Positions 1-44,582 of a stretch of 64,000 nt of DNA are shown one piece after another (position 1 is the stretch's first letter; each line of letters opens with the position of its first letter). A program made the position numbers and the translations under genes. The DNA is from a virus (Duplodnaviria > Caudoviricetes), in IMG/VR virus record IMGVR_UViG_2799112320_000004, positions 16,908 through 80,907 of that record; one strand, 5' to 3'. Below the pieces are notes generated by a model. The model saw nothing but the letters and a program-made list of their open reading frames with translations. It was not told the origin of the DNA and did no database searches.

Positions 1-1
1 G

Positions 2-1189
2 GCTTCAGGCGGCGGCGGAATCTGGGCGAGCGGCAGCTTCGAATGGGGCGACCTGCTGACGAGCGAGAGCGATCCGAACGTCCCAGCATGGGCGAAGTCG
101 TCAGTCAAGCCGTCCTACTCGTGGAGCGAGATCACCGGCAAGCCGTCCGGCCTCGACAACGCCGTGCCGTCCAGCCGCAAGGTGAACGGCAAGGCGCTAT
201 CGTCCGACATCACGCTTTCCGCGTCGGACGTGGGGGCGCCCTCGACGGGCATGTTCAACGCCTCGTCAAACCTCGCGTCCACGGCGGACAGCAAGGCCAC
301 AATGGCCATCGCATATCTTCAGGGCGACGACGCGAAGGTCGTTGTCACGAACTACGACTCGGCCGTCACGATACCGTCCATGAGCCTACAGCAGCGCATC
401 GCCGACGGCGGATCGAACTACTGGAAAGTCGTCTGGAACGAAATGACGCGGTGGAACAGGTTCACTGGCGACGGCTTCGACTGGGCCGCATGGTGCGGCT
501 TCGGCTGCTTCCGCACGAACGTCCTTGCGCAGCTCGACCAGAAGGCGGACCGCGCCTGGGGCTTCTACGAATCGCACACGGGCAACTACGCTCCGGACGG
601 CTACGCGTGGATCAGCAGCCCGAAGATCGCCATCGCCGCCGGGCTTGCGTACCAGCGGACGATCACGTCGGAGGGGGCCGTGTGGGTGCTGGAGTCTAAC
701 GGGCTTGTCACGGAGACGGGCGGAAACATGACAAACGGATTCTTCCGCATCAGCGACGGAGAAAACAACACGCTCTTCGAGATCGTCAAGGGGAACAAGC
801 GCACCGTCGGCGCGCAGGCCGGAAGCGTGACGACCGAAAGCGTCATGGGCATCTCGCACATGCACATCCTATACGCCGTCACGGGCGGCCATCCGACTAT
901 CAAGGTCTGCACCGACCTCACGACGGCGGACTGGAAGGCCGAGACGTCCGACGAATGCGTGGCGAACGTGAACTGGACTGGAGGGAGCGGGGCTTGGATT
1001 GCAGAGGTCTGGGGCAAGACGGCGCAGCCAAGAATGTTCGTGAACGCGGAGTACGAGGTAGGCGGCGAGACGTACATCAAGAACACGGTTCCGATTTCGG
1101 CCGACGGCGGGATCCTCTGCACCGACGGGATCCACAAGGTGCGGCCGGTCTACAACAACGGCTCGATCACGTGGGAGGTCGTTCAGTGA
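2..1189 (+). CDS. Tail-fibre-like protein, C-terminal part (5' truncated)
   Basis: Frame open from nt 2; motifs ESDPNVPAWAK, KPSYSWSEITGKP and RKVNGKALSSDITLSASDVGA are typical of phage fibres; C-terminus homologous to 45651-48257. Confidence 0.7.
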   Translation, partial: ASGGGGIWASGSFEWGDLLTSESDPNVPAWAKSSVKPSYSWSEITGKPSGLDNAVPSSRKVNGKALSSDITLSASDVGAPSTGMFNASSNLASTADSKATMAIAYLQGDDAKVVVTNYDSAVTIPSMSLQQRIADGGSNYWKVVWNEMTRWNRFTGDGFDWAAWCGFGCFRTNVLAQLDQKADRAWGFYESHTGNYAPDGYAWISSPKIAIAAGLAYQRTITSEGAVWVLESNGLVTETGGNMTNGFFRISDGENNTLFEIVKGNKRTVGAQAGSVTTESVMGISHMHILYAVTGGHPTIKVCTDLTTADWKAETSDECVANVNWTGGSGAWIAEVWGKTAQPRMFVNAEYEVGGETYIKNTVPISADGGILCTDGIHKVRPVYNNGSITWEVVQ

Positions 1190-1833
1190 GGGAGCTGATC
1201 GCAGGATTCCAGGCGTCGCTGATCTGGATTTGCGTCGTCCTGCTGCTGTCGCTCGCGGGAATCGCCGCGTGCCCGATCGTGCGGGACGCGCTTGCGAAGC
1301 TCCGCTCGATGTTCGGCAAGTCGAAGGTTCAGGGCATACTTGTCGCGGCGGCGATCGTCGGCGCGGTCATGTACGGCGGGAGCAAGGGAACCCGCAGCGT
1401 CAGCTTCCCGCGCACGGACATCGAAGTCGCGTACCTGGTGGACGCCGGATCGTATGTCACGAACGACCTGGTGCACGTCGCCTTCGCCTCGTACCTGATC
1501 CCGCAGGACGCGCCCATAATCCTCTCGTACTGGCCCGACGGCTCGACGAACGAGGACGAGATCGTGACGGCCCTGGCGGCGCCGCTCGCCGACTTCCCGA
1601 ACCCGCTTGACTTCGCCTTCGAGAACGCTATCTCGAACAGGTGGTACTGCTACACGACGTGGACGCCTGGCCCGGCCGTACACACGAACGGAGTATGGCA
1701 GACGATTTGGATGATGGACAGGTGCGACAACTTCTACATGATCCCCATCCGGACATGGATCGAAGCGGACGGCGAAGTCATTGCTCCGCCGGTGTTCACC
1801 CTGCCAGAAGAAGGAGAACCAGACGATGAATAA
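1186..1833 (+). CDS. Membrane-anchored protein with two N-terminal hydrophobic segments; paralog of 45100-45654
   Basis: GTG overlaps the upstream TGA; hydrophobic N-terminus; shared AGSY(V/L)TND and P(A/T)VHTNGVWQ motifs. Confidence 0.75.
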   Translation: MRELIAGFQASLIWICVVLLLSLAGIAACPIVRDALAKLRSMFGKSKVQGILVAAAIVGAVMYGGSKGTRSVSFPRTDIEVAYLVDAGSYVTNDLVHVAFASYLIPQDAPIILSYWPDGSTNEDEIVTALAAPLADFPNPLDFAFENAISNRWYCYTTWTPGPAVHTNGVWQTIWMMDRCDNFYMIPIRTWIEADGEVIAPPVFTLPEEGEPDDE

Positions 1834-2317
1834 GACAGCAGCACTCTTCGCGCTCGCCCTGGCGGCGGCGATCGCTCCGCTCGAACTCCGCCCGGACGGC
1901 GACCTCTCGCAGGTCGTCGCCCAGACGCTCTTCTCGGACGGCAGCACGAACACGTGGACGCAAGCCGACCTGATCGCCGCCTTGCAACTTGTGAACCGCA
2001 AGTACCACCGCGACTGCGAGAGGGGGGACGGACGCAGGGCGTGGCACGGGAGGCTGATGCGGCAGACGGTCGTGACGAACGGCACGACGCTCGTCAAGAC
2101 GGAGACGCACGAGGACGGGACCGAGTTCACGTTCGAGGCGCAGTACGTTCCGCCGTCCGTCGCCGTCTCGAACGCGAACGCGCGCCTGAAGACCACGATG
2201 TCGAGGGGCGTGCCGAAGGCGTTGGCCGAGGCGCGGCTCCGGCGAGCGGAGGAAAAGGCAAGCGTGTCGAACGTCACGGTGACGGTCACGGCGGGTGCCG
2301 GAACGGAGGTCAAATGA
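1826..2317 (+). CDS. Secreted protein; paralog of 44582-45103
   Basis: AAGGAG RBS; signal peptide MNKTAALFALALAAA; shared DGSTNTWTQADL.AAL...NR and WHG motifs. Confidence 0.75.
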   Translation: MNKTAALFALALAAAIAPLELRPDGDLSQVVAQTLFSDGSTNTWTQADLIAALQLVNRKYHRDCERGDGRRAWHGRLMRQTVVTNGTTLVKTETHEDGTEFTFEAQYVPPSVAVSNANARLKTTMSRGVPKALAEARLRRAEEKASVSNVTVTVTAGAGTEVK

Positions 2318-2559
2318 CGGATGAAGAAAGACTGAAGGCGCTTGCCGAAGAGGCAAGATACGAGGCGCGTTTGTGCAGAGGTCAGTTTTTCAACTGCTGC
2401 TATCAGAACGACGGCATAAACAAGATGCTGTTGAACCACGCAACGCTTTTCCGCCAACTGGCAAGGGCACTAGTCGGCCCTGACGATGAAGACAAGGCCT
2501 GGGATAACCTTTCGCAAAGAATAGCGGAAAAGTTTGCCGGAGGGGAAAACAATGGATGA
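2314..2559 (+). CDS. Small hypothetical protein (81 aa) of lower GC; no counterpart in prophage B
   Basis: GGAGG RBS, ATGA overlap, AT-richer codons. Confidence 0.6.
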   Translation: MTDEERLKALAEEARYEARLCRGQFFNCCYQNDGINKMLLNHATLFRQLARALVGPDDEDKAWDNLSQRIAEKFAGGENNG

Positions 2560-2800
2560 AGTCACGAGAGACATGGTTAAGGCCCAGCTGAAGTCAGCAA
2601 AGACCAAGGAAGCGTTGAACGACGCCATGGTCAGCGCGATGATCGCCGTCGTGGACTGCCAGTGCAAGACGGGGATGCGAGTCAAGCGCCAGGGGCTCAT
2701 CCTCGCCGGCATCGGCCTGTTACTGCTTCTGACGCTTCTGTGCGGCAACGACAGCGCGCTGAAGTTGCTGTGCTTCTGGAGATCGGGAGGGACGCCGTGA
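2552..2800 (+). CDS. Small membrane protein with one C-terminal TM helix (holin-like position); paralog of 44334-44582
   Basis: MDEVTRDMVKAQLKSAKT...VVDCQCKTGMRVKRQGL then a hydrophobic helix; near-identical to the B copy. Confidence 0.8.
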   Translation: MDEVTRDMVKAQLKSAKTKEALNDAMVSAMIAVVDCQCKTGMRVKRQGLILAGIGLLLLLTLLCGNDSALKLLCFWRSGGTP

Positions 2801-3243
2801 AGACGAAGTGGGCGACATGCGCCGCGCCGATCATCAGGCTTCCCATCAGCACGCTGGGAGAGTCTGAGGCGGTGCTGATGGAAGACTGGAACCTCGACGA
2901 TGTGATCGGATTCTCGTTTTGCGTTCCGGCCGGAACCAGGACGGACGGCGCGAGCATCCCGAGGTTCCTCTGGAGGATTTGCGGCCATCCCCTCATGGCC
3001 CCGCGCGTGTATGCGGCCACACTCCACGACTGGCTGTACGGCGAATTCGACCTGACGGCCGCCGCGCTGCATGAAAGCCGGTACTTCAACACGGCCCTTC
3101 CCACGGACCTTACCCGCAAGGAGGCCGACGAATGCTACCGCGCCCTCCTGCTGCACTTTGGCGTCGCCGCGTGGCGGGCCGACATCGAATACTACGCGCT
3201 CCGGCTGTTCGGATCGCGACACTACAAAGGAAAAAGCAAATGA
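2797..3243 (+). CDS. DUF1353-family protein
   Basis: VPAGTRTDGASIPRFLW, AATLHDWLY and RKEADECY motifs characteristic of DUF1353. Confidence 0.85.
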   Translation: MKTKWATCAAPIIRLPISTLGESEAVLMEDWNLDDVIGFSFCVPAGTRTDGASIPRFLWRICGHPLMAPRVYAATLHDWLYGEFDLTAAALHESRYFNTALPTDLTRKEADECYRALLLHFGVAAWRADIEYYALRLFGSRHYKGKSK

Positions 3244-3890
3244 AGAAGATCATCTGGTTTTGCGCGGCCGCCGCGCTTGCAGCGTCCGCATTGGCCGAAT
3301 ACGATGCCGTCCAGCTGGAAGCCGGCGACAACCTGGTACCGGCACCGTGCTCCGGCGTGATGCTCCATGCCATCAGCACGAACGCGAGCGGCACCGTCGT
3401 CCTGAAGAAGGTGACTGCGCTCTCGATCACGTGGAACGAGACGCGGACGGTGACGAACATCATCTACACGACCGCGTGGAGCAACCTCACGCACACCGTC
3501 ACGAACGACATGGTGAGCGCGTGGCGCACGAACGCCGTCACGGTCGCGGGGACGACGAACACGGTGGTCGAGACCAACTTCCTCGCACGGGCGATGAACG
3601 CCATTCCGTCCGTCTATCCCTGGCCCGACCTGCTGATCACGACGAACAAGCTGACCGGCGTCGAGGTGTACACGAACATCCCGTACAAGGTAGAGTCGTC
3701 GCGTCGCGTGATGCCCTACACGATCCAGCGCCGGGCGTCGAAGTACGTCACGAACGACGTCTGCAACGTGACGCTGGCCAGCGGATTCAAGACGAACGCC
3801 GTCAGCGGCGTGTTCGCGCCCGGCGACTACATCTACGCGAGCGGCACGGCGTTCAACGGCGGACGCGTGCAGCTGATCATAGAGAAGTGA
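3240..3890 (+). CDS. Secreted Thr/Asn-rich protein; paralog of 42511-43296
   Basis: Signal peptide MKKIIWFCAAAALAASALA; shared STNA.GTV and C-terminal PGD....GTAF.GG.VQLI.E motifs. Confidence 0.8.
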   Translation: MKKIIWFCAAAALAASALAEYDAVQLEAGDNLVPAPCSGVMLHAISTNASGTVVLKKVTALSITWNETRTVTNIIYTTAWSNLTHTVTNDMVSAWRTNAVTVAGTTNTVVETNFLARAMNAIPSVYPWPDLLITTNKLTGVEVYTNIPYKVESSRRVMPYTIQRRASKYVTNDVCNVTLASGFKTNAVSGVFAPGDYIYASGTAFNGGRVQLIIEK

Positions 3891-3934: not shown

Positions 3935-4438
3935 ATGAAGAAACTGATATTGGCGTGTGTCGTTGCCGTGGCCCTCTCGGGGTGCATGTTCATCGTCGCG
4001 GGCTGCCGTACGGTGTGCGTCGAGAACGACAAGGAGAAAGGCTGGTCCGTGACCTGCCGCTCCAACATGATGAAGTCCGAGCTGGACAACATGAAGGCGT
4101 CCATAAATCCCGACGGGACTATCTCGTTCGAGATGGGAGGCCTCGCTTCTAGCCCGTCCGAGGAGTTCGCGAAGAGCCTGATGACGATGACATACATCGC
4201 GCGCCTTGCCGCTGCCATCGCGTCGCCAACTGCGGCCGGCGTCCCGCTCAACGAATCCGCCGCCGACCCACAGGCGATAGCTGCGATCCTTGCCGCCCAG
4301 GCCGCCGCAAAGGAAACGACGGTAAAGGCGAAGAGCGCGGCCGCCGTGAGCAAGATCGAAGCCAAGGCGAAGGCCGCGTGCCCGACCGGCACGTGCTCCG
4401 ACGGAACATGTTCCGACTGCCAGGCGACGGCTAAGTAG
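3935..4438 (+). CDS. Lipoprotein with Cys-rich C-terminus (spanin-like candidate); paralog of 43310-43813
   Basis: AGGAG RBS; lipoboxes LSGC and VAGC; tail CPTGTCSDGTCSDC. Confidence 0.75.
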   Translation: MKKLILACVVAVALSGCMFIVAGCRTVCVENDKEKGWSVTCRSNMMKSELDNMKASINPDGTISFEMGGLASSPSEEFAKSLMTMTYIARLAAAIASPTAAGVPLNESAADPQAIAAILAAQAAAKETTVKAKSAAAVSKIEAKAKAACPTGTCSDGTCSDCQATAK

Positions 4439-11443: not shown

Positions 11444-13594
11444 ATGGGCGTCATCAACATCACGCAGCGGAGCGAACGGCTCGGCAACCTCGGCGGCACG
11501 TCCGCCGCGCACGGCGTCACCTCCACCGACATCGGCACGGTGCACCACACCTCGGCGCGCACGTTCGCGCCGACCTACTACTCCCGCAACTACCAGGAGG
11601 GCAACCGCGCCATCGGACGCGGCCTCGGCGCCGTCGGCGACACCATGCTCCGCATCGGCCTCGCCATCCAGCAGCGCGAGGAGGACCGCCAGGTCGACGA
11701 GTACACCAGCGCCATGATGCGCACAATGGAAACCGAGAGCCGAGACGAGCGCGACGTCACCGACTGGAACACGCCGCAGCGCCAACACCTCAAAGGCCAG
11801 AAGCGCGGCTACTATCTCCGCACCGGTAAGGGCACGATGAACGTCGCGCAAGAGTGGGACGACTGCTTCGGCGAACGGTTCAACCAGATCGGCGTCTCGA
11901 TCGGCGCGAACGAGCGTGTACGCGAACGGACGATGAAGAACCTCGCCGGCTACAGGCGTAGTTGCATCAGCCGCCTCATGGACCAACAGGCTTCCGAATA
12001 TCGTCGCCTGGAGCTGGGCAACGCAACGGGAACACTCCAGACGCAGATGGATCTCTTTGACAGCGGAAACGACGCCGCCATTCCCGAAATCTTCAAGCAA
12101 TATGACCGCGTGTCGCAGCTGCAACGCCTCACGCCCGAGCAGGCGAAGGCCGGCAAGGAAGAGCTCGCGCTCAAGCTCACCGCGTCCGTCGTGGGACGGC
12201 GGGTCACCGGCTGCCAGACGGCCGAAGGCTTCGACCTCGTGGAGGCCGACATCAAGGCCGGCATGAAAGGAAAACTTCCCGACGAGATCGCCGCCAACCT
12301 CCCCGGCGGCAAGCGCACCATCGGCGGCAAGATGAAAGACGCCCTTCTCACAGACGTCCGCCGCGCGCGGCAGTCGTTCGACATCCAGCGCGACCGCGAG
12401 GAACGCGAGCAGCTGTCCGAACTCGTCGCGTTTTCCGACAACGCCCTCGCGCATGGCGACATCAAGAGTCTCGAGGACGCGTATACGGACATGGACGCGC
12501 GCGCGAAGGAGGCGCCCAAGGGTTCGCGCATGGAGACCGTCGCGCTCCAGCAGGCAAAGCGTCTCGACATGGCTGCCGACGCCGAGGCACGTCGCCTCAC
12601 CTGGGACCACATCATCGCCCACGCCGGCGAGAAGGACGCGCAGGAGCCGGCAGACAACACGCGCATGGCGAAGTTCTACGGGCCGCTGAAAGAAGCGTAC
12701 GACCGGCAGGCGCAGGCGTACCTGGCAGAGGGCGCGCTCATGGCCGACGCGGCCGAGAAGGAGATGTTCAAGGCGAACGAGGCGCAGATCAGGGCTAAGA
12801 TGATGGAGATGGGCGCGGCGTCGCCCGGACTTGTCGCCGGTCAACTCGCGGAAGTCGCCGCGAACGGCCACATCACCCTCGACCAGTACAACCGGCTGCG
12901 CAAGGAGTACGAGAACATCTGGTCGCAGAAGGGAATGCCCGACAAGGCCGCAGAGCTCGTGCGTATCCTGAAACAGGAATTCTTCTTCGGCAGCGACGAC
13001 TACGATCCGCAGGCGACCATGGGCGTCAGCTCGAAGACCGGCAAGTTCGAGTACCTCGTCGATCCCGAAACGAGGAAGCCTTACCCCGGCCAGGACGCGG
13101 AATGGGAGTTCGAGGAGCGCGTGCCCGGAGAGGCACCGAGCCCGTGGCTGGCGGCCTTCGCGCCAGGCACGGCCTACGCCACTTCAAAGAATCGTTCCGT
13201 CTGGCGCAGCCGCACGCTCACGAGCGACGAGCAGCTGAAACTTCTCGACTGGGGACTGGAACTTGCGAAACACGACGGCGAAATGCTGTCCGTCCACCCG
13301 CTCACCAACGAGATCCTGGACAAGCCGTTCAAGCTGGACGCGGCCGCCGTCTTCCGCGACGCCTGCGCACAGCTGAGCGCAGCCAAGGACGCGGAAGCCG
13401 CGCAGGAACTTGTCGTACAGCGCGCAGACGCCATGTTGAGCATCAACTTCGGCGCGGCAAAGCGCGAGGGCCTGCTCGTCGACACCACGACATCCATCCA
13501 GAAAAAGCGAGCCGAAGAGAAGAGCGGCCTGAAGCAGATGAAACGCAGACCATTTACGCCGAAGATGCCGAACGTTGAACCGACGGAGGAGTGA
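11444..13594 (+). CDS. Internal virion (ejection) protein, gp15-like
   Basis: 716-aa helical protein between a gp14-like gene and the giant gene. Confidence 0.6.
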   Translation: MGVINITQRSERLGNLGGTSAAHGVTSTDIGTVHHTSARTFAPTYYSRNYQEGNRAIGRGLGAVGDTMLRIGLAIQQREEDRQVDEYTSAMMRTMETESRDERDVTDWNTPQRQHLKGQKRGYYLRTGKGTMNVAQEWDDCFGERFNQIGVSIGANERVRERTMKNLAGYRRSCISRLMDQQASEYRRLELGNATGTLQTQMDLFDSGNDAAIPEIFKQYDRVSQLQRLTPEQAKAGKEELALKLTASVVGRRVTGCQTAEGFDLVEADIKAGMKGKLPDEIAANLPGGKRTIGGKMKDALLTDVRRARQSFDIQRDREEREQLSELVAFSDNALAHGDIKSLEDAYTDMDARAKEAPKGSRMETVALQQAKRLDMAADAEARRLTWDHIIAHAGEKDAQEPADNTRMAKFYGPLKEAYDRQAQAYLAEGALMADAAEKEMFKANEAQIRAKMMEMGAASPGLVAGQLAEVAANGHITLDQYNRLRKEYENIWSQKGMPDKAAELVRILKQEFFFGSDDYDPQATMGVSSKTGKFEYLVDPETRKPYPGQDAEWEFEERVPGEAPSPWLAAFAPGTAYATSKNRSVWRSRTLTSDEQLKLLDWGLELAKHDGEMLSVHPLTNEILDKPFKLDAAAVFRDACAQLSAAKDAEAAQELVVQRADAMLSINFGAAKREGLLVDTTTSIQKKRAEEKSGLKQMKRRPFTPKMPNVEPTEE

Positions 13595-16500
13595 CGATGC
13601 CGAGACCGAATACCCCAACCCGATGGGACGCCATTCCCGCATTGACGGAAGAGGAGCGCGTCGCGTCGGCGCTCAGCGTCAGCCCGGCCACGGCCACCGA
13701 CGAGGAGAGCCGCGCGGCCGCGCAGACCCTTTCCAGGCAGGTGCTGATCGCGCACCAGATCGCGCAGATGCCGGATGAATCCTTCAAGACCGAGGCGGAG
13801 AAATACGCCGCAGCGTCCAAAATCGTCGAGACCATGACCGGCGCGAAGGACCTCGACGGCCGCCTCTGGAATGGGGGCAAGCCGTTCAAGACCGGCAAAG
13901 AATACCTGATGAGCGTCCGCGACGTGCTGACCCGTGGCATGACGGCGGCGGCCGATCCCGACCTCCAGGCGTGGCTGGCCATGTCGGACGAGGAGAAGGA
14001 CGCGAAACTCGAGCGCGAGCAGGGCTTCCTCTCGTCCTTAGCCGAGGGCGTGGGCGACGCGACGTCGCAAGTCGCCGCGCATTACGGCATCAACACTGAG
14101 CTCTCGGAGAGCGAATATGAAGCGGCTCCGGAGGACGTGCGCAACGCGAGCTTCATGCTGTCGCGCGACGACACGCCGCAGGCCGAGCGGGACAAGTACG
14201 GCGCGACGATCCGCGAGTGGCGCACGGGAGAATGGCGGAAACTCCAGCGCCGCAGCGAGTACGAGGCGAAGCTGCGCCGCAAGAACGCGCTCCTCTACCT
14301 TCCGGACATGATCAAGTCGCTGAAGACCGATGAGGCCAAGACGCTCGCGGGCGAACTTGCACAGGACCCTTCCGCGATTCCGGACAACTGGGAGGCACGC
14401 CTGAGGCGCCTGCCCACGCACGACATCGAGACGCTGGCGCAGATTCGCGGCATGACGCGCGAGCAGACCGAGGGCGGCTTCTTCAACTGGCTCGGCGACA
14501 TGGGCATCGGCGTATACAACGCCGCGCGCGGACTCGTCAACGGGCCGTACCAACAGCTCGAGAAGTACGGCGCGATGGCCATGGGGTTCGACGAAAACCT
14601 CATCAACGAGACGATCCGCCGCAAGCACGCGCTCTGGAGCGCGTACGCGGGCTGGAGCTCGCCCGTCGCGCCGCTCTCCGACCAGCACGGGGCCGTCGCG
14701 AACTTCACGATCGGCCTCGCGTCCGCCGTTCCGTTCATCGCCTCGATGAAGCTGAAGGCGCTCGGCTACGTCGCGTGCGCGGGCGAGATGATGTCAGAGG
14801 CCGACGCCCAGGCCGCCGCAGCCGGCGTCGACACGACGAGCTTAGAGTACAACGCGATCAACCTCGTCGCAGGCGGCACCTACGCCTACATGCTGAAGGC
14901 CGTGAGCCCGAAGTTCTTCGGCGCGTCCGCGAACGGCGCGGCCGAGGAGATGGCCCTGCGCACCGCGTTCATGAAGGGCGTGCTGAGCGGCGTCGCGAAG
15001 CTCGACACCGTCAAGATCGCGTCCCAGCGCACGGCCGCCGGCTCGCTGATGATGGCCATGCAGCAGTCGATCGCAGCCGTGAACAACGACCTGCACCTCG
15101 GCGGAGACGCCTGGAACGACGCCGCGAAGAGTTTCACGGAGACGTTCGTCTCGTCCATCCCGGACATGCTCGCATTCACGGGATACGGGATCCTCGAAGG
15201 CCACGCCCGCGCGTCCGGCGGGTTGCCGAAGATGTTCACGGCCGAGGGACGCGCCAACCGCTCGCAGAACCTCCGCGAGGCCGTGGAGAACGCCTTCGCC
15301 GTCAGGACGGCGATCGTCGGGAATGAGCAGATAGACAATCTGCGTAAGGCAACCATTTTGAATCAACTCTCCGCCATGAGCCGTGCATGGACAGAGGGGG
15401 GCGAAGCTGGACTGAGAGGCCTTGGCCTGAAGCCTGCGGAGATAACCGAGGCGAAGGATTACTTCGAAGCTGAATGCAAGCAGCTTGGCGCGGCAGAGAA
15501 GCTGGGGGAACTTGACTCCATCCTCGACGAGCAGGGGGCGAGGGGAGAATTCGATCCGTACGTGTTCGCGGAGCGAAACGAGGCCGCAAGACGCTACGAT
15601 GAACTGGCGCGCGACTACTCTGTCAAAACAGACCGCCTGCACAAGAGGATCATCGAGAAGATGCTCGATGAGAAAGGCACGCTGCGCGACATCGCGTCCG
15701 TGCGCAACGTCTGGGCGCAAGGCCACGCCGTCGGTGCGGGAATGGCCGACGGCACCGACGCCGGCGCCGCCGCGCTCGTCAAGGCCGGCTTTACACCGGA
15801 AGACGCCGCGATTCTCTCCCGCGAGTTCGGCGCGGAGCGCAGGAACATGTACTCGCCCGCCGCGACCGAGGCATTGCGCGAGATGTACACGCGCTCCACG
15901 CGCGGGATGGTGGAGGCGCACGCCGCGCTCGCGAGCGCGTTCAAGGGCAAGGTGCGCACCGAGAACGGGCGCGTGCTGATCGACCTCCCGATGCCGGACG
16001 GCGGCACGGGCACGCTCGCCGTCGAGACGGAAGATCTGTCGCAGAGATTCTACGGCGCGGCGGGAAAAGACCCGGAGCTGGCGCGCCAGATCGAAAGCAT
16101 TGTCACGCGCCTCGGCGGCCATGTGACAGCTGACGCCTGGATCAACATGACGGACGCCGAGCGGCGCCGGATCGTAAAGGAATTCCATCTTCAGGACGAA
16201 GGCTACTTCATGCTGACGGATCCGGCCGACCCGTCGCTGCATGTCGATTCCGGCGACGCCGACGCCGTGATGGGCGTGATCCGTCTCGACCCGACCGCAG
16301 ACCCCGGTGTAGGCTTCCACGAGTCGATGCACGGTTTCCTGCGTTTCTGCCAGGAGACGGGCTTCTTCGACGAGGCCGACGTCAAATGGCTCACGGACAC
16401 CTACGGCACGCCGCAGAACGCGAAGGAGCAGTTGAACGAGGAGAGCGCGGCCGACGGCTTCCGCCAGTACCTCGCGAAGCGCATGGCGGGCTCGTTCGCC

Positions 16501-19500
16501 GAGGAGCCTGGCCCGTTCCGCAAGCTGTTCGGCCTCATCAGCCGCATCCGCCACCTGCGCGACAGCCGTGCGGCGACGGAACGCCTCGCCGCGAACGCCG
16601 AGGAGGCGCTGTACGACGCGTTCCTCGCGGGCAAGTACCAGCACGTTCGCGACCTCACTTTCGCCGAACCCGTCGCGCCCAAGGCCGAGACGGGCACCGG
16701 CACCGAAGCGCCGCAGACCGGCGCGCCGACGCCAGCGCCGACACCGGCGCCGACTCCGGCACCGGCACCCGCACCGACTCCAGCGCCGACGCCCGCACCG
16801 GCGCCCGCGCCCGCGCCGCGCGTCGTCTCGTTCGAGGCGCTGACGCCGACCGGCGGAAAGAAGGTCAAGGGACACTACGAGATCGTCCCGCTCGCGTCGC
16901 TGCTGCACTCCAACATGGCCGGCTACCCGATGGAGCTCCAGCAGCGCGACCGCAAGGGCAACAAGGGCGAGGAGCAGACGCGCGAGGAGCACATCGCAAA
17001 CTTCGAGCCGGGCTACCTGCTGGCGGATCCGAAGACAGACTCCGGCGCGATGGTCGTGGCACGGCGTCCTGGACCGGACGGCAAGCCGCAGCTCGTCGTC
17101 GTCTCGGGGAACGGGCGCACGATGGTCCTGGAGGAGATGGCCAAGCGCAACCTCTACGACCGCTACCGCAACCGCATGAAGGAATGGGCGAAGGAGAACG
17201 GCGTCGAGAACACCGTCGCGGACGCAGACAATCCCGTCCTCGTGCGCGTGGTGGACGAGCTCGGCGGCGCCACGCTGAAGGAGCTGGCCGACCTCTCGAA
17301 CACAAACGCGATCCAGCAGATGAACGAGGAAGAGCAGGCCCGCGCCGACGCCGACCTCGTGCGTTCGCTCGACCTCGCGAAGCTCTACAAGCCGAACATG
17401 GACGGCTCCGCGAACATGGCCGCCGGAGCGAGCGACGAGTTCTTCCGCGAATTCGTGCGCGCGACGGGCGACACCAGCCTGCTCAATTCCGACGGCACCT
17501 TCACCGAAGCCCTGCGCATGAGGGCGCGGCGCGCACTTCTCGCAATCGCATGCGGACAGGGCGAGCGCGGGCGCGACGTCGTGAAGAAGCTCGTCGAGGA
17601 CACCGATGCGCTCGGCATCGACCGCCAGAAGGACACGGCCGCCGCGATCGCGCCGCACGTCGCGGCCATCGAGACGCGTCCGGAATACGCCATCGGCCCG
17701 GACGTGAGCCGCGCGTTCGCGGACTACATCGAGTTCCGCGAGAACCGCGACACGGGCAAGAAATGGGGTACGCTCGATGAGTACCTGAAGCAGGGCGACA
17801 TGCTCGACCAGCGCAGCGAGATAGCCGAGGCGGTCATGCGGCTCCTGGACGATCCGAAGAGCGCGCCCGTGCTGGCCGAGACGGTGCGCCTCTACGTCGA
17901 AGCCGCCAAGGGCGAAACGGACGGCCTCTTCGGCGCTGCCCGGACACGCGCCGAGATATGGCGCGACGCCGCAAAGGCCGTTAACGTTGAAGCCGCAGAA
18001 AAGCGCTACTCGATCGCGGGCAAGGTGGCCGCCTCAAACATGGGCATCAAGGGCGCGGGCGACGCCGAGGCCATGGAGAAGGCCGGCAAGGATCGCGAGG
18101 AGATATGGCGCACGACCGGATGGTGGCGCGGCAAGGACGGCCGGTGGCGCTTTGAGCTGCCGTCCGTGAAGATGAAGAGCGAAAAGGAGATCGAGGCTGC
18201 GCTACGGGAGGGAATAAACGGCCTTCGCGGCGGAAGCAGCGAAACGACGCTTGAAAAAGTGCTGGACGCTCCGGCGCTGTTCGAGGCCTATCCGCGGCTT
18301 AAGAAAACAAAGATCGTATTCTCTCCGGAACACGACGACAAGACCGGCGGATGGTACGACGCCGGAAAGAACGAGATCGTCCTGCTCGATACGGGTATAA
18401 AGGATCTAAGGCATCGGCCGAAGCACGAACAGGACCTCTACGATACTTACCAGCAGGTAATAAACTCGGACGAGTTCCTTCAGAAGCGGTTCAGCAACAT
18501 GGATGCGTTCGGCATCAAACACGGAACGGCCGAGGAAGAGAGGGCGCTGGCGAAAGACTGGATCGCGAAATTTGACAAGAGCATTCAGGACGAAAACGCC
18601 GCAATAGTCAGAGATCTTGTAAAAGATCGTGGGCCGTACAGCGCATTCGGCAAGATCGTCCACGAGGTGCAACATTCCGTGCAATACATGGAGACATTCG
18701 CAAAGGGCGGAAACCCTGAATCGGCAGCCGAATTCGTCAAGAACATGAAGCGCAAGCAGCGAATATGGGCTTACAGACTCGAGGTCGAGGAGACCGCGAA
18801 AGAGCTTGGCACGACGAATCCCTACGAGATAGAAAGGGCAATCCTCGAGAAGCTGGGAGTGACGAGCCGTGAGCAAATAGCGGGGCTTGAAGCAGATGGA
18901 TGGATCCCCGACAGGGAGGGAAGAGACAAGGGATATAATCTGTTTGCCAGGGGATACGACAAGGAAGGCTACGAAGAAGCCTACAACGAATACCTGGGCG
19001 AAATGAGGAAGACCGGCAGGGCCGGATGGTGGGAAGGCTCTCCACGAGAGCTTTACAACCGTCTTGCCGGCGAGGTTGAGGCGCGGAACGCATCGCGCCG
19101 CGAAGCCATGTCGCCGGAGGAGCGCGCGGCCACGCCGCCCTGGGAAACCGAGGACGTGCCAGCCGACCGCCAGATCGTCAGGTACTCCGTGACGGCGCAG
19201 AGAGTCACGCCCGAAGAGGACGCCGCGTATGCGGACGCCGTGAAGCGCGGCGACATGGAGACCGTGCGGCGCATGGAGCGCGAAGTTTACGAGCGCATGG
19301 GCTACTCGGACGACTCCAGCTACCAGGGAACGAGCGCGTTCAACGGCGCGGCTCCAAGCAGCAACGCCTACTTCGAGACCAAGGCGGAGCGCATCGAAGC
19401 GGCGAAGAACGGCGAGATGGAGGACACTACGACGCTCGGCGACTTCCGCGACGGCATCGACGTCAACAATCTTCAGTTTATCGTGTTTGATCCACGTTCG

Positions 19501-22500
19501 GAGCGCAACGCCGATCCGATGCGCCAGGAGGCAATACGGAACATTCGCGATGTTCTCGACGGCGGCAAAGACACGATAACGATGTACCGCAGCGTCCCGG
19601 CCGACGTGAAGGAGGGACAATTCCGGAACGGCGACTGGATCACGCCGAGCCGCGCCTACGCGGAGGACAACGCCCGCATCCACGGATGGGGCAAGAAGTT
19701 CCGCGTCATCGAGCAGGAAGTTTCGGTCGAAGACGTCTGGTGGGACGGCAACGACATCGCGGAATGGGGCTTCGACGACGGTAAGGGCAGCGTGTACAAG
19801 AACACGCGGGCGAACCGCAAGCTGCTCGGTCCGACCTACGACAACGCGGGCAACCTGATACCGCTCTCGAAGCGCTTCAACGACTGGCTCATGGACGCGC
19901 GCTACTCCATCGCGGGCCGTGTCGCCGCGTCGAATATGGGCATCAAGGGCGCGGGTGAGGCCGAGGCCATGGAGAAGGCTGGCAAGGATCGCGAGGAGAT
20001 CTGGCGCACGACCGGATGGTGGCGCGGCACCGATGGTAAATGGCGCGTGGAGATCCCGGACTTCACGCTAAAGATGGACACGATTGGCAGGGAAGCCAAC
20101 GAAAGCGACCCGGATTACTTCGTGCGCAAGCGGAAGTTGCCAGACATCATCACCGACACCCGTCTCTTTGAGGCGTACCCGGAACTGAAGAAGATCACGG
20201 TCGAGACGCCGCATCACGATACATTCGGCGGGGCCAGCGTCCTGGGTGACTACAACGGCAAGAGGCGCATCCGACTGAACACATGGGCGATGATGTACGA
20301 TCCGGAACAGGTTCGCAGTACGCTCGCGCATGAGATACAGCACGCGATCCAGTACATCGAGGGTTTTGCCAAGGGCGGCAACCAAGGCCAGTTCAAGGAG
20401 GCAGACCCGTGGGCACTGCGCCGAAAGGCGAAGGCGGAGCGCAGGCGCGGCAACGAGACCGAAGCCGCACGTCTGGAAGCCGAGGCCGAGGAGATTGAGG
20501 AAAATGCGCTCGAAGGACATGTGATCGAAAATGGCGAGGTGTACGAGGACACGTTCGAGGCTTACCAGTCGCTCGCGGGCGAGACCGAATCACGCAACGT
20601 CGAGAAGCGCCTTGCCATGACGCCGGAAGAGCGCGCGGCCACGCCCCCCTGGGCGACTGAGGACGTGCCCGCCGACCGCCAGATCGTCAGGTTCTCCCTC
20701 GTCGGCAAGCGTCCGGACGGGATCGAAGTGTTCAGCACGCGCTCCGTGGACGACATGACCAACGCTCAGCGGCGCGACGAGTTCCTACGTAAACTTAAGG
20801 AGGATTATAAGGGACGCACGGCGCGTTTCGTTGCGGACGGCAAGACCTACTATGCGACATTCGGCGATGATGATGTCGGCAAACTCGTATACGGAGACAA
20901 TAAAACATCTCCTCGAAACAAGAAGGTAAAAGATCGAATCGGCGCGGCCGGTGATATATTTGATCTCGTCGAGAACTCTCGTTTCAAGGGACCTGGGAAA
21001 GAGCGCGGAAAGAAAACGGATGCTCACAGGAACGTTGAGAGATGGGATTATTTCGTCAAGACCGTCCAGATCGACGATGGCATGTACGACGTGCGAATCG
21101 AAGTGCGGAGTAAACCCAGCAGGACGGGTCAGTTGAAGGACGAATTCGTCTACAACGTGTTCTTGAACCACAGCAAGAAAAAAGCCGACCTTCGGTTCCT
21201 ATCATGGGCAGAAGCCTTAGCAGGCGATGCCTCCGTCCGTAACGCGAACGTCACGGCTCTCAGACCCGAAAAGTCGGATGCGGAAAGTGTACCAAATCCC
21301 TCCGACGAAATCAAGGCCGATCCGGAGTCTTTTGCGCGGCGCTCGATCGTCTCGCGCGTAATCGACGGCGACGCCGAGGAACGCGAATCCGCGCTCGTGG
21401 CGTTCGTCGCCGAGCGCGCGCTCAGGCACGGCCCGAAGCCGAACGCCTTCAAGACCATCGCGCGGCTCGGGCTGGAGATGGGGCTCAAGACCGTGAACGC
21501 ATCCAATATCGTCAAGAAAGGCGAGGCTCTTGCCGACCGCGTGCGCGGCACCGTCATCGAGAAGGCGATCCGCAAGGGCGACGTCGCCACGGCCACGGCC
21601 CTTCTCGCCCGCGAAAGCGACATCGACCGTCTCGTCGCCGGCGCAGCCGGTCAGGGCGGCCAGCTCGTCCGCGCAGGCGAGGGCAAGATCAAGAGCTTCC
21701 TCGACCGCGAGATCGAAAAGCATATCCGTTCGTTCAACGCCGCGTCGCTCGCGGACGTGGAGCGCGACACCGGCATCGACATCGCGGGCGAGATCCTGGC
21801 CAACAGCCCGGAGAGGTTTGATCCGAAGGGATCGGCGAAGCGCGAGGAAGCCAAGGCCGAAGCCGGCGAGGCTGGAGGCGAGGAAGGTGCCGTGCCCGGC
21901 GCCGGCGCGCCCGACGAGGGCAACATCACCGACTTCGAGCGTGCCCGCCGCGAGCGCGTGCGCAAGGAGGCCGAGGAGCGCGTCGCCAAGATGATCGCCA
22001 CGGCCAAGCAGCGCGCGGAAGAGGCCGAGAATCAACGCGCGGAATGGGAGGCGCAGCGCGAAGAGCGCAAGCGCCAGGCCGAAGCCGCAGCGGCGGCCGG
22101 CGAAGCCGGCGAGGCCGGCGAGGCCGGTGGCGGCGCCGGTGGTGGTGGCGAAGGCGGCGGCGTCGGTGGCGAGACCGTCACGCCGGAGCGTCCGAAACTC
22201 TCCACGTTCGCCGACTTCAAGTCGCCCGAGGAGTTCGCCGCGTTCTTCCGCGTCTGGGCCGAGGAGCGCTACAAGAAGGAACACGGCGCATCCACACTCG
22301 GCAAGCACGAGGAGAAGCGGCTCTTCCCGGAGTTCTACCGCAAGGCCGTCGTGCGCGAGCTGCAAGACCTGGCCGACAAGCTCCTGCCGCCCAAGGGCGC
22401 GCGCGCGACCGTCAACCGCTGGCTCGGCGAGATCCAGCCCGGCGTGAAGCCCGACACCCTCGAGCGCATTTCGGCCGACATCTTCAAGTACATCAACCGC

Positions 22501-25134: not shown

Positions 25135-26242
25135 ACTCCAGTGCCTGACGGATCTCCTCCGTCTTGTCGGCGTGGTCATATCGCTGCACGGTCGCGTCCT
25201 GCGTCCATCCGCCGAGCCGCTTTGCGAGGTCGTTGCTCACGCCGGCCTCGGCCAGGCGTGTCCTGAAGGTATGCCGCCAGCTGTGGAAGGTGATCGTCGG
25301 ATCGTCCACGCCGGCCGCCTTCAGGATCGCGGCGAAGGTACAGTCTTCCGGATCGCCGGGATAGACTTTCGCAAACTCCGGAAGCACATACTTCCGGCCC
25401 TTCACGAACAGACCCTTCAGCGCGTCGCGCAGCACGGCCACCATCGGAACCTCGACCTCGATGTTGTAGCCCTGAGTCTTGATCGGCTTCACGCGGATCA
25501 CGCCCCTCTCGAAGTCTACTTTGCTCCATTCCAGGAACACGACGTCATGCTTCCGGAGCCCGGTCCACCGTGCGACGAGACACGCCTCATACCAATGCGG
25601 CACGGCGCTCGCCTTCGCGGCCGCCAGCACGGCCTTCTCCTGGGCGCGCGTAAACGCGGCGTGACGCTGGCCGTCGCGCACGGTCGGCCGGAGGTCCTTC
25701 CACGGATTGCGGACGCCATACAGGGCCTCGGCGGCCTTCCAGATCGTGGATAGATTCCCGATGTATTCTTTCCGGCTTTTGTCCTTCAGCTTCGCCTTGT
25801 GCTTTTTGTCCTTCGGCGAGCTCTTCTTCTTCAGGTGCTCGGCATACGCCATCGCACACTCGAACGTCACCTCCTCCACGGTCGTGACCGGGAACTCGGT
25901 TTTCGTCCACTCGATGAAATCCTCGAGGTTCTTCTTCCGCTGCTTCACGAGCCGTTCGCCCGGCTTGCGATCGCGCATCGACATGAACCGCTCATACGTC
26001 GCCCACAGCTGAGCGATCGGCAGCCCGGCTCCCTCGCGCTCCCTGGTGAAGACGGCGTCGAGAATGGATTTCAATTTCATCTCGGATATCTTGCCCTTAA
26101 TCGACAGGTGCATGGACTCCTCGATCGACCGCGCATCCTTAATGGAAGTTGTGCCGGTAGACTGGCGGATGAATTTCCCTGGTCTTTTGGGGTCACGGAA
26201 TGAAACCCACCAGTATTTAGAACCGTTATTTTTGTATAGCAT
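25121..26242 (-). CDS. int: Tyrosine recombinase / phage integrase
   Basis: N-terminal arm-binding YWWVSF..R.STGT; catalytic TGLR, FHSWRH, LGGW and terminal Tyr (VQRYDH). Confidence 0.95.
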   Translation of the reverse strand: MLYKNNGSKYWWVSFRDPKRPGKFIRQSTGTTSIKDARSIEESMHLSIKGKISEMKLKSILDAVFTREREGAGLPIAQLWATYERFMSMRDRKPGERLVKQRKKNLEDFIEWTKTEFPVTTVEEVTFECAMAYAEHLKKKSSPKDKKHKAKLKDKSRKEYIGNLSTIWKAAEALYGVRNPWKDLRPTVRDGQRHAAFTRAQEKAVLAAAKASAVPHWYEACLVARWTGLRKHDVVFLEWSKVDFERGVIRVKPIKTQGYNIEVEVPMVAVLRDALKGLFVKGRKYVLPEFAKVYPGDPEDCTFAAILKAAGVDDPTITFHSWRHTFRTRLAEAGVSNDLAKRLGGWTQDATVQRYDHADKTEEIRQALESTSA

Positions 26243-26584: not shown

Positions 26585-29500
26585 TCAGTCGAAATCGCCA
26601 TCCCAGCCTTCCGCCTCGACCTGCCGCTTCGCCCTTCTGTACATCTTTTCGTCATTCGACATCTTCCTGAGCGTCTTCCCGATCGGATCGAACTCGCTTC
26701 CCATCTTCGCCGCGATGCCCTGCACCTTCTTGAACGCCAGGCCCTCGATGATCTCCGCGTCCTCCTCGGGCAATCCCAGCTCCGCTACCCTCGCCGCGAG
26801 CATCTCGCTGTAGTCGAAGTCCTCGCCTTTCGCCCTCACCGCCTCGATCACCTCGTCCGCCACGCGCTGCGCGGCCGCCCTGAGCGGCGCGCTGTCGTCC
26901 CGCCGGTACTTCTCCAGCCTCCGCGCGATCCGCTCGTTGCCGCCGTTCTGGAATGTGATGAGCCCGCTCGCCGCCGCCGACAGGAACGGTATCGAATGCA
27001 GCGCCTGGAAGATCGTCTTGCCGCCGATCGGCATGCAGCCGGCCTCGCCCTCCTCCGCTCCGCTGAGCGCCCACTGTCCCTGGTCGTCGTACGCCCCCTC
27101 GTCCTCGTCCCAGGTAGTGGCCGGCATGACTACCTGCCCGCCCACGTCGTTCCACAGCTGCTTGCCTACCTTCGTCGCCATGTTGCCCGGATCCGCGAAC
27201 CTCGACTCGAAGTCCGCCTCGCTGTACACCGTGCGCTGCGTGAACGAGTTGTACGGGTTCCACCCGACGAGCGGGCCGATCGCGTCCTGGAACAGCGACA
27301 TGAGCAGTCCCCTTCTCGTGAGGTCCGGCACCAGTCCGCTGTTCAGCACCGTGTTCTGCACCGCCTGCGAGCCCGTGTAGTTCAGGTCCGTCGGCAGCGA
27401 GAATCCCGCCTCCTCGGCGCGCTCAGACCCCAGCAGGCCGTGCGCCAGCAGGTCCACCGCCGGCATGAGCAGCCTGTCCTCGTCGCCGCGCGGCATCGAG
27501 ATCGCGAGCGTGCTCCACTTGCCGTACAACCCGACCGGCACGATGTCGTAGTTTCTCAGACGATAGTCGCTGCAGTTCGCGAGGCCGTGCGCCATGCGCC
27601 GGCCGAACCTCATCAGCCACCCGGCGTTCTTCTGCTTCTCCTCGTCGTCTCCCGCCTCCTCCCCGAGCATCTTTGCGAGGACCGCGTACCCGCCGCCCAT
27701 CCACAGCACGCTCGTCGCGAGGCGCCCGGCGATCCGGCTCGCCGCCTTCGTCCACCAGGCCTTCGGATCGTAGCGCATCGCCTCCAGCGTGCGGTACGCG
27801 CCCTTCATGCCCACGTTCATGAACGGGCCGCACGCGAACTCGATGTAGTTCATCGCGCGTCCCCGGTTCTCGTACCGCGGGCTCCCGCTCATCGTCGCCA
27901 CCTGGTAGGTGATCTCGTCCGCCGACCTCGGCGCCTCCCGTCCCTGCGCGCGCGCCAGCTCCGCCTCGTGCTCCGCCGCGAGGAGCGCGATCAGCTTCAC
28001 GCGCGCCTCCTCGAAGTCGTTGAACCGCTTCACCGTCTCCGCCCGGCGCTGCATCCACCTCTTCACGCGCTTTATGCCGGTCAGCTTCGTGCCGTCTAAG
28101 TTCGTCTCCATGCCCAGCGTGCGCATGAGCTCGTCGATGTCCGTCTTGCCGCTTTCGCCCATGATCTGCTTCCTGACGCCGGCGAAGATCGGCAGCTTCA
28201 TCACGCCCCTGCACTTCTCCACGTCCTCCATGATGCGCTGCGCCTGTGCCGTCTTCCCCTGCCCGGCCAGCCGGTCCGCCTCCGCGATCCTCTGCTGCAG
28301 CAGCTTCGGGTCCTGCATCAGCTTCGCGATCCGCGTCGCCTCCGCCTCGTAGTAGATGTTCGTCTTGTCGCCGTACAGCAGGTTCATCAGGCCGTTGCGC
28401 GCGAACCTGTCCGGCAGGTGCGCCGCCGCGCGCTCCATCAGGAACGTCGCGAGGCGCGCGATCGGACGTAGGCCCACCAGCCCCGCCGCGCCCACGAACT
28501 TCCCCTCGCCCATCCAAGCGATGTTGTTCGCGTTGCTCGCCCGGTTGCGCCAGATGTTGCGCAGCGCGAAACGCGGGCTGTACTGCGTGAGTACCGCGCT
28601 GATCGCCCGGTTGATCTTCACGACCTTGCTCACGCCCTTCGCGTCGTGCTCGAACCCGTCCGCCACGACCTTCGGCATGACGAGCGTCATGCGCCTGCCG
28701 TCCTTCAGGAACGTCACGCTCCCGTACCTGTTGCTCCCCTTCAGACGGCCGCCGCCGCCCCGGTCCTCCATCACCGCGAACCCCTCGAGCCCCAGCGTCT
28801 TCGACGCCTCCGCGAGCGAGCACGCCCAGTGGTTGCGCTGCGCGAACTCGACGATCCGCAGGTCGTTCTCGAGCGTCGCCGCGAGCGGGTCCTTCACCGC
28901 CTTGAGGCTCCCGACGAGCGGCTTCATGAACGAGCTTCCCGACGCGCCGCTGCCCTTGAGCGCGTGCATGTCCATGAGCGCCTCGATCTCCGCGATCACC
29001 GTGCTCTCGCCCGGATGGCGCTTCATCCAGTCCTCGCGCGCGGCCCTGTACGCCTCCACCTCCTCGGCCGTCCACGTCCGCTCGCTCCGCACGTAGCTCG
29101 CGTTCATCCGCCAGTAGCCCACGAGGTCCCGGCCAAACGCCTCCAGCACGAACTCGTTCTCGAGGATGTGCTGCTCGCGGAGCGCCTGGAATCGCTTCGC
29201 CGCCGTCTCGAGACGCGTCCAGCCGTCCGCGCCCAGACGCCCCTCCAAATCCTTCAGCACCTTGTCCGCCTCGCGCTGGTCCATGCCCAGCGCCGCGGCC
29301 TTGCCCTTCTGGTGCATGCCGTCCCGCACGCTCTTCGCGTAGAGATAGCGCCGCAGGTCGTCCAGCTGCACGCCGTCCTTCGCCACCTCGTCCATGATGT
29401 GCTCGGCGAAGTCGAGCGCGTACCTTCTGCCCTTTCCCCCTCCTCTCTGCTTTTCTAGCAGCGCCGCATTTATCTTATTCAGCTCATCCTTCACACTTCT

Positions 29501-43309: not shown

Positions 43310-43813
43310 CTACTTCACCGTGCAGTCTTCGCACGTCCCGTCCGTGCATTTTCCCGTCGCGCACTTGGCCGATGCCGCCGTCCCCTTCTCTGCCGCCTTC
43401 GCCGCGATCTTTGCCGTCTCCGCGTTCGACGCCGCGTTCACGAGCGCGGCCGTGTCCGCCGCGTTCGCTGCGCCCTTGTCGAGCGGAACGCTCGCCACGG
43501 CCGGATTGAACACCGTCCCCGCCAGCCTTCCGAGCACCGACACGCCGTACCAGAACTCCGCTGCGTTTTTCGCCAGCTGCTCCGACGTGTCGCTCTTGTA
43601 GCCGTTGAACTCGACCTCCACGCCTTCTGCCGACTTCTTCGCGCGGAACGAATCCACGTCACGCTTCAGCCAGTGCGACGTAGACGTGACCGACCATCCT
43701 CCGTCGGCATTCACCTCGACCTTCGTCGAACTGCATCCCGCGCACATGAACACGCACCCTCCCAGGCTCGCCAACATGCCGCCCAATGCAGCAATCTTGA
43801 TCATCTTCTTCAT
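43310..43813 (-). CDS. Lipoprotein with Cys-rich tail; paralog of 3935-4438
   Basis: AGGAG RBS; LGGC and CAGC lipoboxes; CATGKCTDGTCEDC. Confidence 0.75.
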   Translation of the reverse strand: MKKMIKIAALGGMLASLGGCVFMCAGCSSTKVEVNADGGWSVTSTSHWLKRDVDSFRAKKSAEGVEVEFNGYKSDTSEQLAKNAAEFWYGVSVLGRLAGTVFNPAVASVPLDKGAANAADTAALVNAASNAETAKIAAKAAEKGTAASAKCATGKCTDGTCEDCTVK

Positions 43814-43887: not shown

Positions 43888-44337
43888 TCAAAGACTCCGC
43901 CCGCTTTCCGGGCACCCGCCCGAAATCTCCTTTCCCTCCGGCGCCTTGTCGACGAAGTGCCGGCCGCCGAACGCGCGCAGCGCGTAGTACTCCACTCCCG
44001 CCGCGAACGCCCCTATGCCGAAATGGCGCAGCAGCGCGCGGTAGATCCTGTCCGCCTCCTTGCGCGTGATCCCCAGGCGCCAGGCGTTGCGGTAGAGCCA
44101 GTCGTGCGCGAGCGCAGCGTAGACTCGCGGTGCCTGCAATGGATGCCCGCAGACACGCCACAGCACTCTGGGGATGGAGGCACCGTCCGTGGTCGTGCCT
44201 GCGGGTATCACGATGTCGAAGAATTCCTCCACGCGGTAGAGCGACCACGGCTCCATGAGAACCGCTTCCTTCTCTCCGAGCGTGCTTATCGGCAGCCGGA
44301 TGATCGGCGCCGCGCAGTCTGCCCATTCCGTCCTCAC
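43888..44337 (-). CDS. DUF1353-family protein; paralog of 2797-3243
   Basis: IPAGTTTDGASIPRVLW, AALAHDWLY, RKEADRIY. Confidence 0.85.
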   Translation of the reverse strand: MRTEWADCAAPIIRLPISTLGEKEAVLMEPWSLYRVEEFFDIVIPAGTTTDGASIPRVLWRVCGHPLQAPRVYAALAHDWLYRNAWRLGITRKEADRIYRALLRHFGIGAFAAGVEYYALRAFGGRHFVDKAPEGKEISGGCPESGRSL

Positions 44338-44582
44338 GACGCGCCTCCCGAATGCCAGAAGCTGAGCAGCTTCATCGCCGTATCGTTCCCGAAGAGCAGA
44401 GCCACCAGCAGCAGAAGGCCGATCCCCGCGACGATGAGCCCCTGCCGTTTTACGCGCATGCCTGTTTTACACTGACAGTCAACGACAGCGATCATCGCGC
44501 TCACCATCGCGTCATTCAGGGCCTCCGTGGTCTTTGCCGACTTGAGCTGCGCCTTGACCATATCACGCGTTACTTCGTCCAT
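44334..44582 (-). CDS. Small membrane protein (holin-like position); paralog of 2552-2800
   Basis: Near-identical protein sequence; TGATG overlap. Confidence 0.8.
   Translation of the reverse strand: MDEVTRDMVKAQLKSAKTTEALNDAMVSAMIAVVDCQCKTGMRVKRQGLIVAGIGLLLLVALLFGNDTAMKLLSFWHSGGAS

Follow-up and report, generated by a model that had tools for sequence, protein, structure and literature searches.

A small membrane protein family adjoining phospholipase-A2-type genes in temperate phages of Lentisphaerae and Kiritimatiellae

Classic holins, such as lambda S105, T7 gp17.5, and T4 T, are small proteins with a membrane helix, expressed late, whose genes stand before that of a lytic enzyme with overlapping stop and start codons. 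A holin, once expressed, permeabilises the cytoplasmic membrane in a lethal and timed way. For phage WO, which is temperate and has no recognisable endolysin, a holin-like protein of small size and a patatin phospholipase encoded beside the tail module have been proposed as a lytic cassette (PMC9203015). DUF1353 has been shown experimentally to be a phospholipase A2 (PLA2) in TtaP, from the typhoid toxin islet (PMC11525133). A further group, the single-gene lysis proteins or amurins, includes protein E of phiX174, a small membrane protein that binds a host envelope-synthesis enzyme.

The protein described here, encoded in two prophages of one bacterial genome, can be set beside each of these systems. 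Like a classic holin, it is small (82 aa, where holins measure less than about 150 aa and have at least one membrane helix), apparently late, and encoded directly before an enzyme gene whose start overlaps its stop. Unlike a classic holin, in which the highly charged hydrophilic domain is C-terminal, it carries its charged domain at the N-terminus, presumably in the cytoplasm, and conservation of this domain far exceeds that of the membrane helix. The adjoining gene, which in holin loci would encode an endolysin, is here PLA2-type and not muralytic.

The likeness to the phage WO cassette lies in a single-helix membrane protein adjoining a phospholipase gene, close to the tail genes of a temperate phage in which an endolysin is not recognisable, and in both cases the hypothesis comes from gene position. 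However, the enzymes belong to different phospholipase families (patatin in WO, DUF1353 or a group XIV-like protein here), and in the WO protein the membrane helix is N-terminal and a charged C-terminal coiled coil follows, the reverse of the order seen here. The two systems are not related in sequence. As with TtaP, the neighbouring DUF1353 protein has an invariant HD..Y, lacks a signal peptide, and would stay cell-associated. For TtaP no small membrane partner has been described, whereas here the enzyme is always preceded by one and a lipoprotein gene follows. If the idea of a host target were true, the protein would resemble the amurins in being a small membrane protein whose conserved part binds a host envelope-synthesis enzyme. 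The amurins, however, come from small ssDNA or ssRNA phages, E binds via its membrane helix, and for the present protein the host target is an idea.

The locus bears on how phages of PVC bacteria (Lentisphaerae, Kiritimatiellae), in which no standard lysis genes are visible, burst their hosts. What is new is an unnamed family of small membrane proteins linked to PLA2-type enzymes of two families; small membrane proteins of lysis-type cassettes are known, and the tie to phospholipase A2 is the added aspect. The pair of genes offers a concrete, testable unit for a lipid-based lysis step, and DUF1353/TtaP gains a possible membrane partner.

Two prophages with one shared cassette

The stretch of DNA analysed, 64,000 nucleotides long and referred to as the window, comes from a genome of 5.2 Mb, in which it lies on a 109-kb contig. 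Within this stretch two prophages, elements A and B, are placed tail to tail, A on the + strand up to 25134 and B on the − strand, running down to 26585 from about 64000. Element A has tail tubular and internal virion genes in T7-like order, and element B a helicase, a terminase-like gene, and a scaffold gene. The carriers of the cassette are temperate phages with T7-like gene order, of gut or rumen Lentisphaerae and Kiritimatiellae.

The junction itself has features of its own. An integrase gene (25121-26242, − strand; PHROG 1, E = 3e-40) lies exactly between the two convergent prophages. Two giant ORFs, at 13591-25134 (+) and 26585-36196 (−), with products of 3847 and 3203 aa, also converge there. 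These "polyvalent" ORFs contain LPD23, ddrB-ParB, and LPD3 in one and an ADP-ribosyltransferase and MuF_C in the other.

When the proteins of A and B were compared by blastp, one shared block emerged, running from the fibre-like gene through the lipoprotein gene, with the Thr/Asn-rich and lipoprotein genes in exchanged order in B; beyond the block there was a single additional match, an unrelated pair. The identities along the block are, in order, 31, 31, 43, 89, 59, 35, and 38%, so that no other member of the block comes near the small protein in conservation. The DNA of the two elements aligns clearly only in 2552-3042, apart from two matches of ~150 bases in the Thr/Asn-rich gene. The genes of the cassette (Table 1) are chained through overlapping stops and starts, and six of its seven products are exported or membrane proteins. 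In element B, the stop of the upstream secreted gene overlaps the start of the small gene by one base; homologs of this secreted protein precede the small gene in distant loci too. For the Thr/Asn-rich protein, Pfam and PHROG scans gave no match.

In element A an accessory ORF, lacking in B, lies just before the small gene. It is absent too from an otherwise 90-95% identical viral contig, L013 (2296-2551 compared), and a 77% identical copy is present in L022. Between window A and L013, the 81-aa ORF thus reads as an insertion or deletion difference.

Table 1. Coordinates of the cassette genes in the two prophages and of the second enzyme family at other loci
Feature	Position	Strand	Basis and remarks
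Fibre-like gene, 3' part, opening the shared cassette	1..1189	+	PHROG tail-fibre matches; B homolog 45651-48446 (−), 31% over the C-terminal part
Two-membrane-helix protein, first gene after the fibre-like gene	1186..1833	+	Translation; B homolog 45100-45873 (−), 31% identical
Upstream secreted protein, signal peptide	1826..2317	+	ORF list, translation; B homolog 44582-45103 (−), 37-43% identical
Accessory ORF, 81 aa, in element A and not in B	2314..2559	+	Overlaps the small-gene start by 8 bases
Small membrane protein, copy A	2552..2800	+	82 aa; ORF translation
Small membrane protein, copy B, second prophage	44334..44582	−	82 aa; ORF translation
DUF1353 (PF07087) PLA2-type gene, copy A	2797..3243	+	Pfam E = 2e-18; GTG start
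DUF1353 gene, copy B	43888..44337	−	Pfam E = 5.4e-18
Secreted Thr/Asn-rich protein	3240..3890	+	Translation; B homolog 42511-43296 (−), 35-41% identical
Lipoprotein, lipobox	3935..4438	+	B homolog 43310-43813 (−), 38-39% identical
Members of the second enzyme family	L025:6339-6788, L003:8261-8740, L024:6345-6779		Aligned

In copy A, codons 1-47 (2552-2692) of the small gene encode a hydrophilic helical N-domain, codons 48-65 (2693-2746) a single membrane helix, and codons 66-82 a short tail. The Kyte-Doolittle maximum, 2.90, falls at residues 49-63, and the segment 48-65, the sole hydrophobic stretch, is free of charged residues. The N-part has 9 K+R and 6 D+E, and the 17-residue C-tail 2 K+R and 1 D+E. 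Because four basic residues (K39, R43, K45, and R46) stand among the ten before the helix, the positive-inside rule predicts a cytoplasmic N-domain and an outside tail, as in a tail-anchored inner-membrane protein. The lack of a signal peptide and the single helix at 48-65 of 82 residues are those of the tail-anchored class, in which the helix falls within about 30 residues of the C-terminus, with the orientation predicted. An AF2 model of modest confidence (pLDDT 71) has helices at 3-15, 19-64, and 66-77, the second being one long helix that continues from the N-domain into the membrane segment. Mean entropy is 0.47 in the N-domain, 0.76 in the membrane helix, and 1.16 in the tail, so conservation declines toward the C-terminus. 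No helical periodicity of the variable positions was detected (P about 0.3), and variability is not confined to one face.

Constraint on the N-domain and its limits

Copies A and B are the only two in the host genome. Their proteins are 87-89% identical overall, with 49 of 50 residues identical in the N-part, at a nucleotide identity of 78%. From a hand count, the initial annotation had reported about 25 synonymous differences and a single K/T change in the first 50 codons, together with an invariant VVDCQCKTG. A codon-by-codon recount gave exactly 25 silent differences, with K19T as the one change of residue, and VVDCQCKTG is indeed shared unchanged by the two copies. For codons 51-82 the count is 12 silent and 10 residue-changing differences. 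In Nei-Gojobori terms, pS is 0.77-0.79 and pN 0.017 for the N-part, against 0.56 and 0.173 for the C-part, and the contrast between the two parts has a Fisher p of 0.0011. Random placement of 27 base differences produced a mean of 18.5 residue changes and a minimum of 10 in 200,000 trials, versus the 1 observed.

Among the 49 identical residues, 25 codons differ, and 19.3 +/- 3.0 would be expected if codons had been drawn independently from the window's own codon usage. Therefore, the silent sites of the N-part are fully saturated; the annotation was right about saturation and, in calling it near-complete, too cautious. Since these sites are completely randomised, recent transfer is excluded. 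An overlapping gene or an RNA element as the cause of conservation is likewise ruled out by the saturated silent sites. The 25 silent differences lie slightly above the expectation, not significantly; an excess of this kind would agree with pressure on co-resident prophages to avoid identical DNA.

Acceleration of silent change specifically in the N-part was also considered and ruled out, the mismatches of neighbouring genes being equally patchy. What had raised the idea was the comparison of L013 with window A, where small-gene pS is 0.42 for the N-part and 0.07 for the C-part. The patchiness of the small gene and its neighbours points to ordinary recombination mosaics.

Homologous neighbour genes of A and B have a pN of 0.26-0.53 at similar pS, and the N-domain has evolved 15-30 times more slowly than they have. 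These comparisons support very strong purifying selection on the hydrophilic N-domain, and mark it as the region of choice for mutagenesis or as bait.

A word-indexed search returned 164 close relatives at 70-99% identity, one of them named from a Victivallales genome, and an exhaustive profile search returned 41 clusters at 50% identity, most matching positions 1-45 only. Given these homologs and the contrast of low pN with high pS, the ORF is a real gene under selection. In the distant members (51-59% identical) the N-domain is kept, with the core A-x-I-A-x-V-D-C-Q-x-K-T-x-x-R-V-K, and is joined to another linker and another, Gly-rich membrane helix. In four clusters (P0136, P0137, P0139, and P0147) it sits on a non-membrane C-terminal part.

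The annotation had also singled out CxC as a constrained functional feature, and here the wider family speaks against it. C36 is invariant in 121 close relatives, and position 38 is C in 64%, Y in 18%, F in 10%, and also Q or W; in the distant members C36 is again invariant and position 38 takes any of 10 residues, with L, R, H, G, A, M, S, and K among them. Because position 38 varies while C36 does not, CxC is not a motif, and the conservation of both cysteines that a metal-binding CxC would have is not seen.

Among the loci with DNA available, the N-domain occurs in two types, told apart chiefly by residues 1-28. Between type I and type II, pN is about 0.26 (64-70% identity, 30-36% residue difference), whereas pN within a type is 0.00-0.08 at saturated pS, and within type II 0.00-0.07 at a pS of 0.26-0.76. 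Constraint is thus strong yet specific to the N-domain type, and the alleles look mosaic. The extreme constraint that had been proposed holds within the pair and within a type, not family-wide, and a comparison of dN/dS across homologs, which had been suggested as a check, comes out in the same way: low pN within types, divergence among broader homologs. Nor is the N-domain always the slowest gene: in L003, compared with window A, a tail gene is 88% identical and the N-domain 82%.

No family match above noise was obtained for close or distant members in Pfam, PHROG, and NCBIfam scans, so that none of the described holin families, one of which would have spoken against the initial annotation, is represented. 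A PDB profile search gave matches with E > 1 only, the ESM Atlas only unnamed viral clusters, and tblastn against 50,697 GenBank phage records none at all. In 400 other genomes of the phylum no further copy of the small gene was found, and a scan of 185,579 species genomes returned three others only, one Lentisphaerae, one Kiritimatiellae, and one rumen MAG. Type I is present in two Lentisphaerae genomes and type II in one Kiritimatiellae genome; the types may follow host lineage, on three host assignments only. As a whole, the interpretation first given is partly supported: the strong N-domain constraint and the lack of a known holin family stand, CxC as a functional motif finds no support, and the constraint is narrower than family-wide.

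Phospholipase-A2-type neighbours and a possible link to lysis

Wherever downstream DNA exists, in about 18 distinct loci, the next gene after the small gene is of the phospholipase-A2 type. This partner, overlooked in the initial annotation, is the strongest functional clue. The two DUF1353 copies of the window score 66.2 and 64.8 bits with PF07087, against a cut-off of 22.5, and are 59-67% identical to each other. In both, and in most loci, the stop of the small gene and the start of the DUF1353 gene overlap by four bases, which suggests coupled translation. DUF1353 is found downstream in 17 places (window A and B, L009, L011, L013-L021, L026, L028, L031, and a 49-kb ENA contig), and H77, D78, and Y81 are invariant in an alignment of 14 of these partners.

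The first ~20 residues of the DUF1353 partners, with the core A-A-P-I-I-R-L-P-I-S-T-L-G-E (2797-2860 and 44278-44337 in the window), are nearly invariant in eight loci. At the same loci the enzyme cores are 57-74% identical to copy A, one near-identical locus aside. The DUF1353 N-terminus is a second island of strong constraint, adjoining the small gene.

In L003, L024, and L025/L027, a second phospholipase-like family takes the place of DUF1353. It has ~145 residues, 116 relatives, no Pfam model, and the invariants Y41-N-G-I-G-P46 and H71-D72. Group XIV secreted PLA2s are recognised by their fold together with a Ca-loop-like YxGxG and a catalytic His-Asp. Sequence-profile searches of Pfam and PDB with the second family gave no match. 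An AF2 model (pLDDT 92.9) has as its best three PDB matches the group XIV secreted PLA2 structures 4aup, 8k1w, and 7ygk, with Z of 8.7, 7.9, and 6.8 over 92-101 aligned residues, the next, unrelated chain reaching Z 5.5; the second family is thus predicted to fold like a group XIV PLA2. Because hhalign gives a probability of only 6.6% between this family and DUF1353, we treat the two as distinct. The N-domain of L025, which is paired with the second family, is 94% identical to that of window A.

In L003 (8105-9256) and L011 (1637-2359), a single open frame joins the phospholipase domain to a signal-peptide or lipobox segment and a periplasmic part, the equivalent of the cassette lipoprotein following behind the enzyme. 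This fusion of parts that are separate in the window ties the enzyme functionally to the lipoprotein.

DUF1353 is also met in the lysis regions of other phages. In Salmonella phage Segz_1 the order is endolysin, endolysin, holin, spanin, DUF1353, and in Pseudomonas phage Cygsa01 the DUF1353 gene overlaps a putative endolysin gene. Since DUF1353 sits in lysis cassettes of cultured phages, the PHROG label "tail assembly chaperone" attached to it is probably an inherited misnomer. In the present elements, no PHROG or Pfam lysin was found among 22 other proteins of A and B that were scanned. Of the families tested in the 95%-complete host genome, Phage_lysozyme and SLT had no Pfam match anywhere, with SLT detected in 8 of 14 control genomes, and Amidase_2 was found on another contig only.

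Possible roles of the small protein

We tentatively favour, while stopping short of calling it probable, the reading that the small protein is a holin-like membrane gate or timer, or a docking partner, in a phospholipase-based lysis cassette. The protein would accumulate in the inner membrane during infection and, at the end of infection, let the signal-less phospholipase reach or attack membranes; lysis would then include a lipid-cutting step. The setting would be a late, translationally chained "envelope" cassette made up of the fibre-like protein, the two-helix membrane protein, a secreted protein, the small protein, the PLA2, a second secreted protein, and the lipoprotein. From the position of the genes we infer a lysis function for the cassette; hole formation, a timing role, the direction of action, and the reason for the N-domain constraint are inferences too. 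Since the cassette encodes other membrane proteins, one of these could be the holin instead. Moreover, holins are usually less conserved, and so the N-domain constraint needs a further reason beyond a holin-like role. A specific interface with the enzyme is, on the sequences compared, an unlikely one, because one and the same N-domain is paired with two phospholipases unrelated to each other and is carried, within one host, by two unrelated backbones. Its cause may lie in packing of the protein into homo-oligomers, in a host factor, or in some other conserved partner.

The last of these was the proposal of the initial annotation, which sees the cytoplasmic N-domain as the binding site for a conserved host protein, for instance an envelope-synthesis or transport enzyme, and the small protein as an inhibitor or takeover factor instead of, or besides, a pore. 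We consider this unlikely, though it has several observations to build on. The same N-domain type (94-98% identical at saturated silent sites) is present in two backbones that share only the cassette, and it occurs with both phospholipase families (window versus L025), so the constraint is not accounted for by the backbone or by the surface of a specific phospholipase. Conservation on all faces of the helices, the possible tracking of hosts by the two types, and the failure to find a canonical endolysin among the families and proteins scanned would also suit a host target. Against this stand the small number of host assignments, three, and the invariable pairing with a phospholipase, which argues for a role tied to that enzyme; the constraint, too, could equally stem from homo-oligomer packing or from another cassette protein. 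A bolder version, in which these phages do without any wall-cutting endolysin, the N-domain blocks a host envelope-biogenesis protein in the manner of an amurin, the phospholipase and lipoprotein finish the membranes, and the types track host lineages, seems to us rather doubtful.

The pairing with the enzyme is taken furthest if the small protein is a dedicated regulator of the phospholipase, either its inner-membrane anchor or an inhibitor, antiholin-like or immunity-like, that holds it until lysis. Obligatory adjacency with stop/start overlap would be expected of such a pair, N-domain and signal-less phospholipase are both predicted to be cytoplasmic, and the fusions in L003 and L011 indicate that membrane attachment of the enzyme recurs. 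The N-terminus of DUF1353 is nearly invariant within this clade as well, but it occurs with both N-domain types. Near-identical N-domains, for their part, pair with two families that hhalign does not join and whose N-termini are unlike. On balance, a regulator of this kind is possible but not likely.

A place among structural genes might instead point to a virion or ejection component, or to a superinfection-exclusion or lysogenic-conversion protein. The gene lies between head and tail genes, near the fibre-like gene, and the four clusters with a non-membrane part carry the N-domain as docking domains are carried; each of these long variants, however, is a single cluster and might stem from an error of assembly or frame. 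T7-type phages also place lysis genes inside a late operon, which takes weight from the argument from position. Virion parts are assembled in the cytoplasm, which sits badly with a cassette in which six of the seven products are exported or membrane proteins, and no PHROG structural match was found. We regard this alternative as improbable. That the pattern arose by chance, from a mis-called ORF, or through a recent recombination patch is highly improbable, even with the patchy recombination around the gene (window A versus L013) and the mosaic look of the alleles: random placement never approached the single residue change observed, the saturated silent sites mark the shared sequence as old, and low pN at appreciable pS recurs within type II.

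One further arrangement was noted outside the window. In a Lentisphaerae MAG (CAMKJU010000001.1), loci L025 and L027, at about 39.5 kb and 90.4 kb, are two apparently identical copies of the cassette in direct orientation, ~51 kb apart. A tandem prophage might explain the duplication, as might an artefact from assembling a circular phage.
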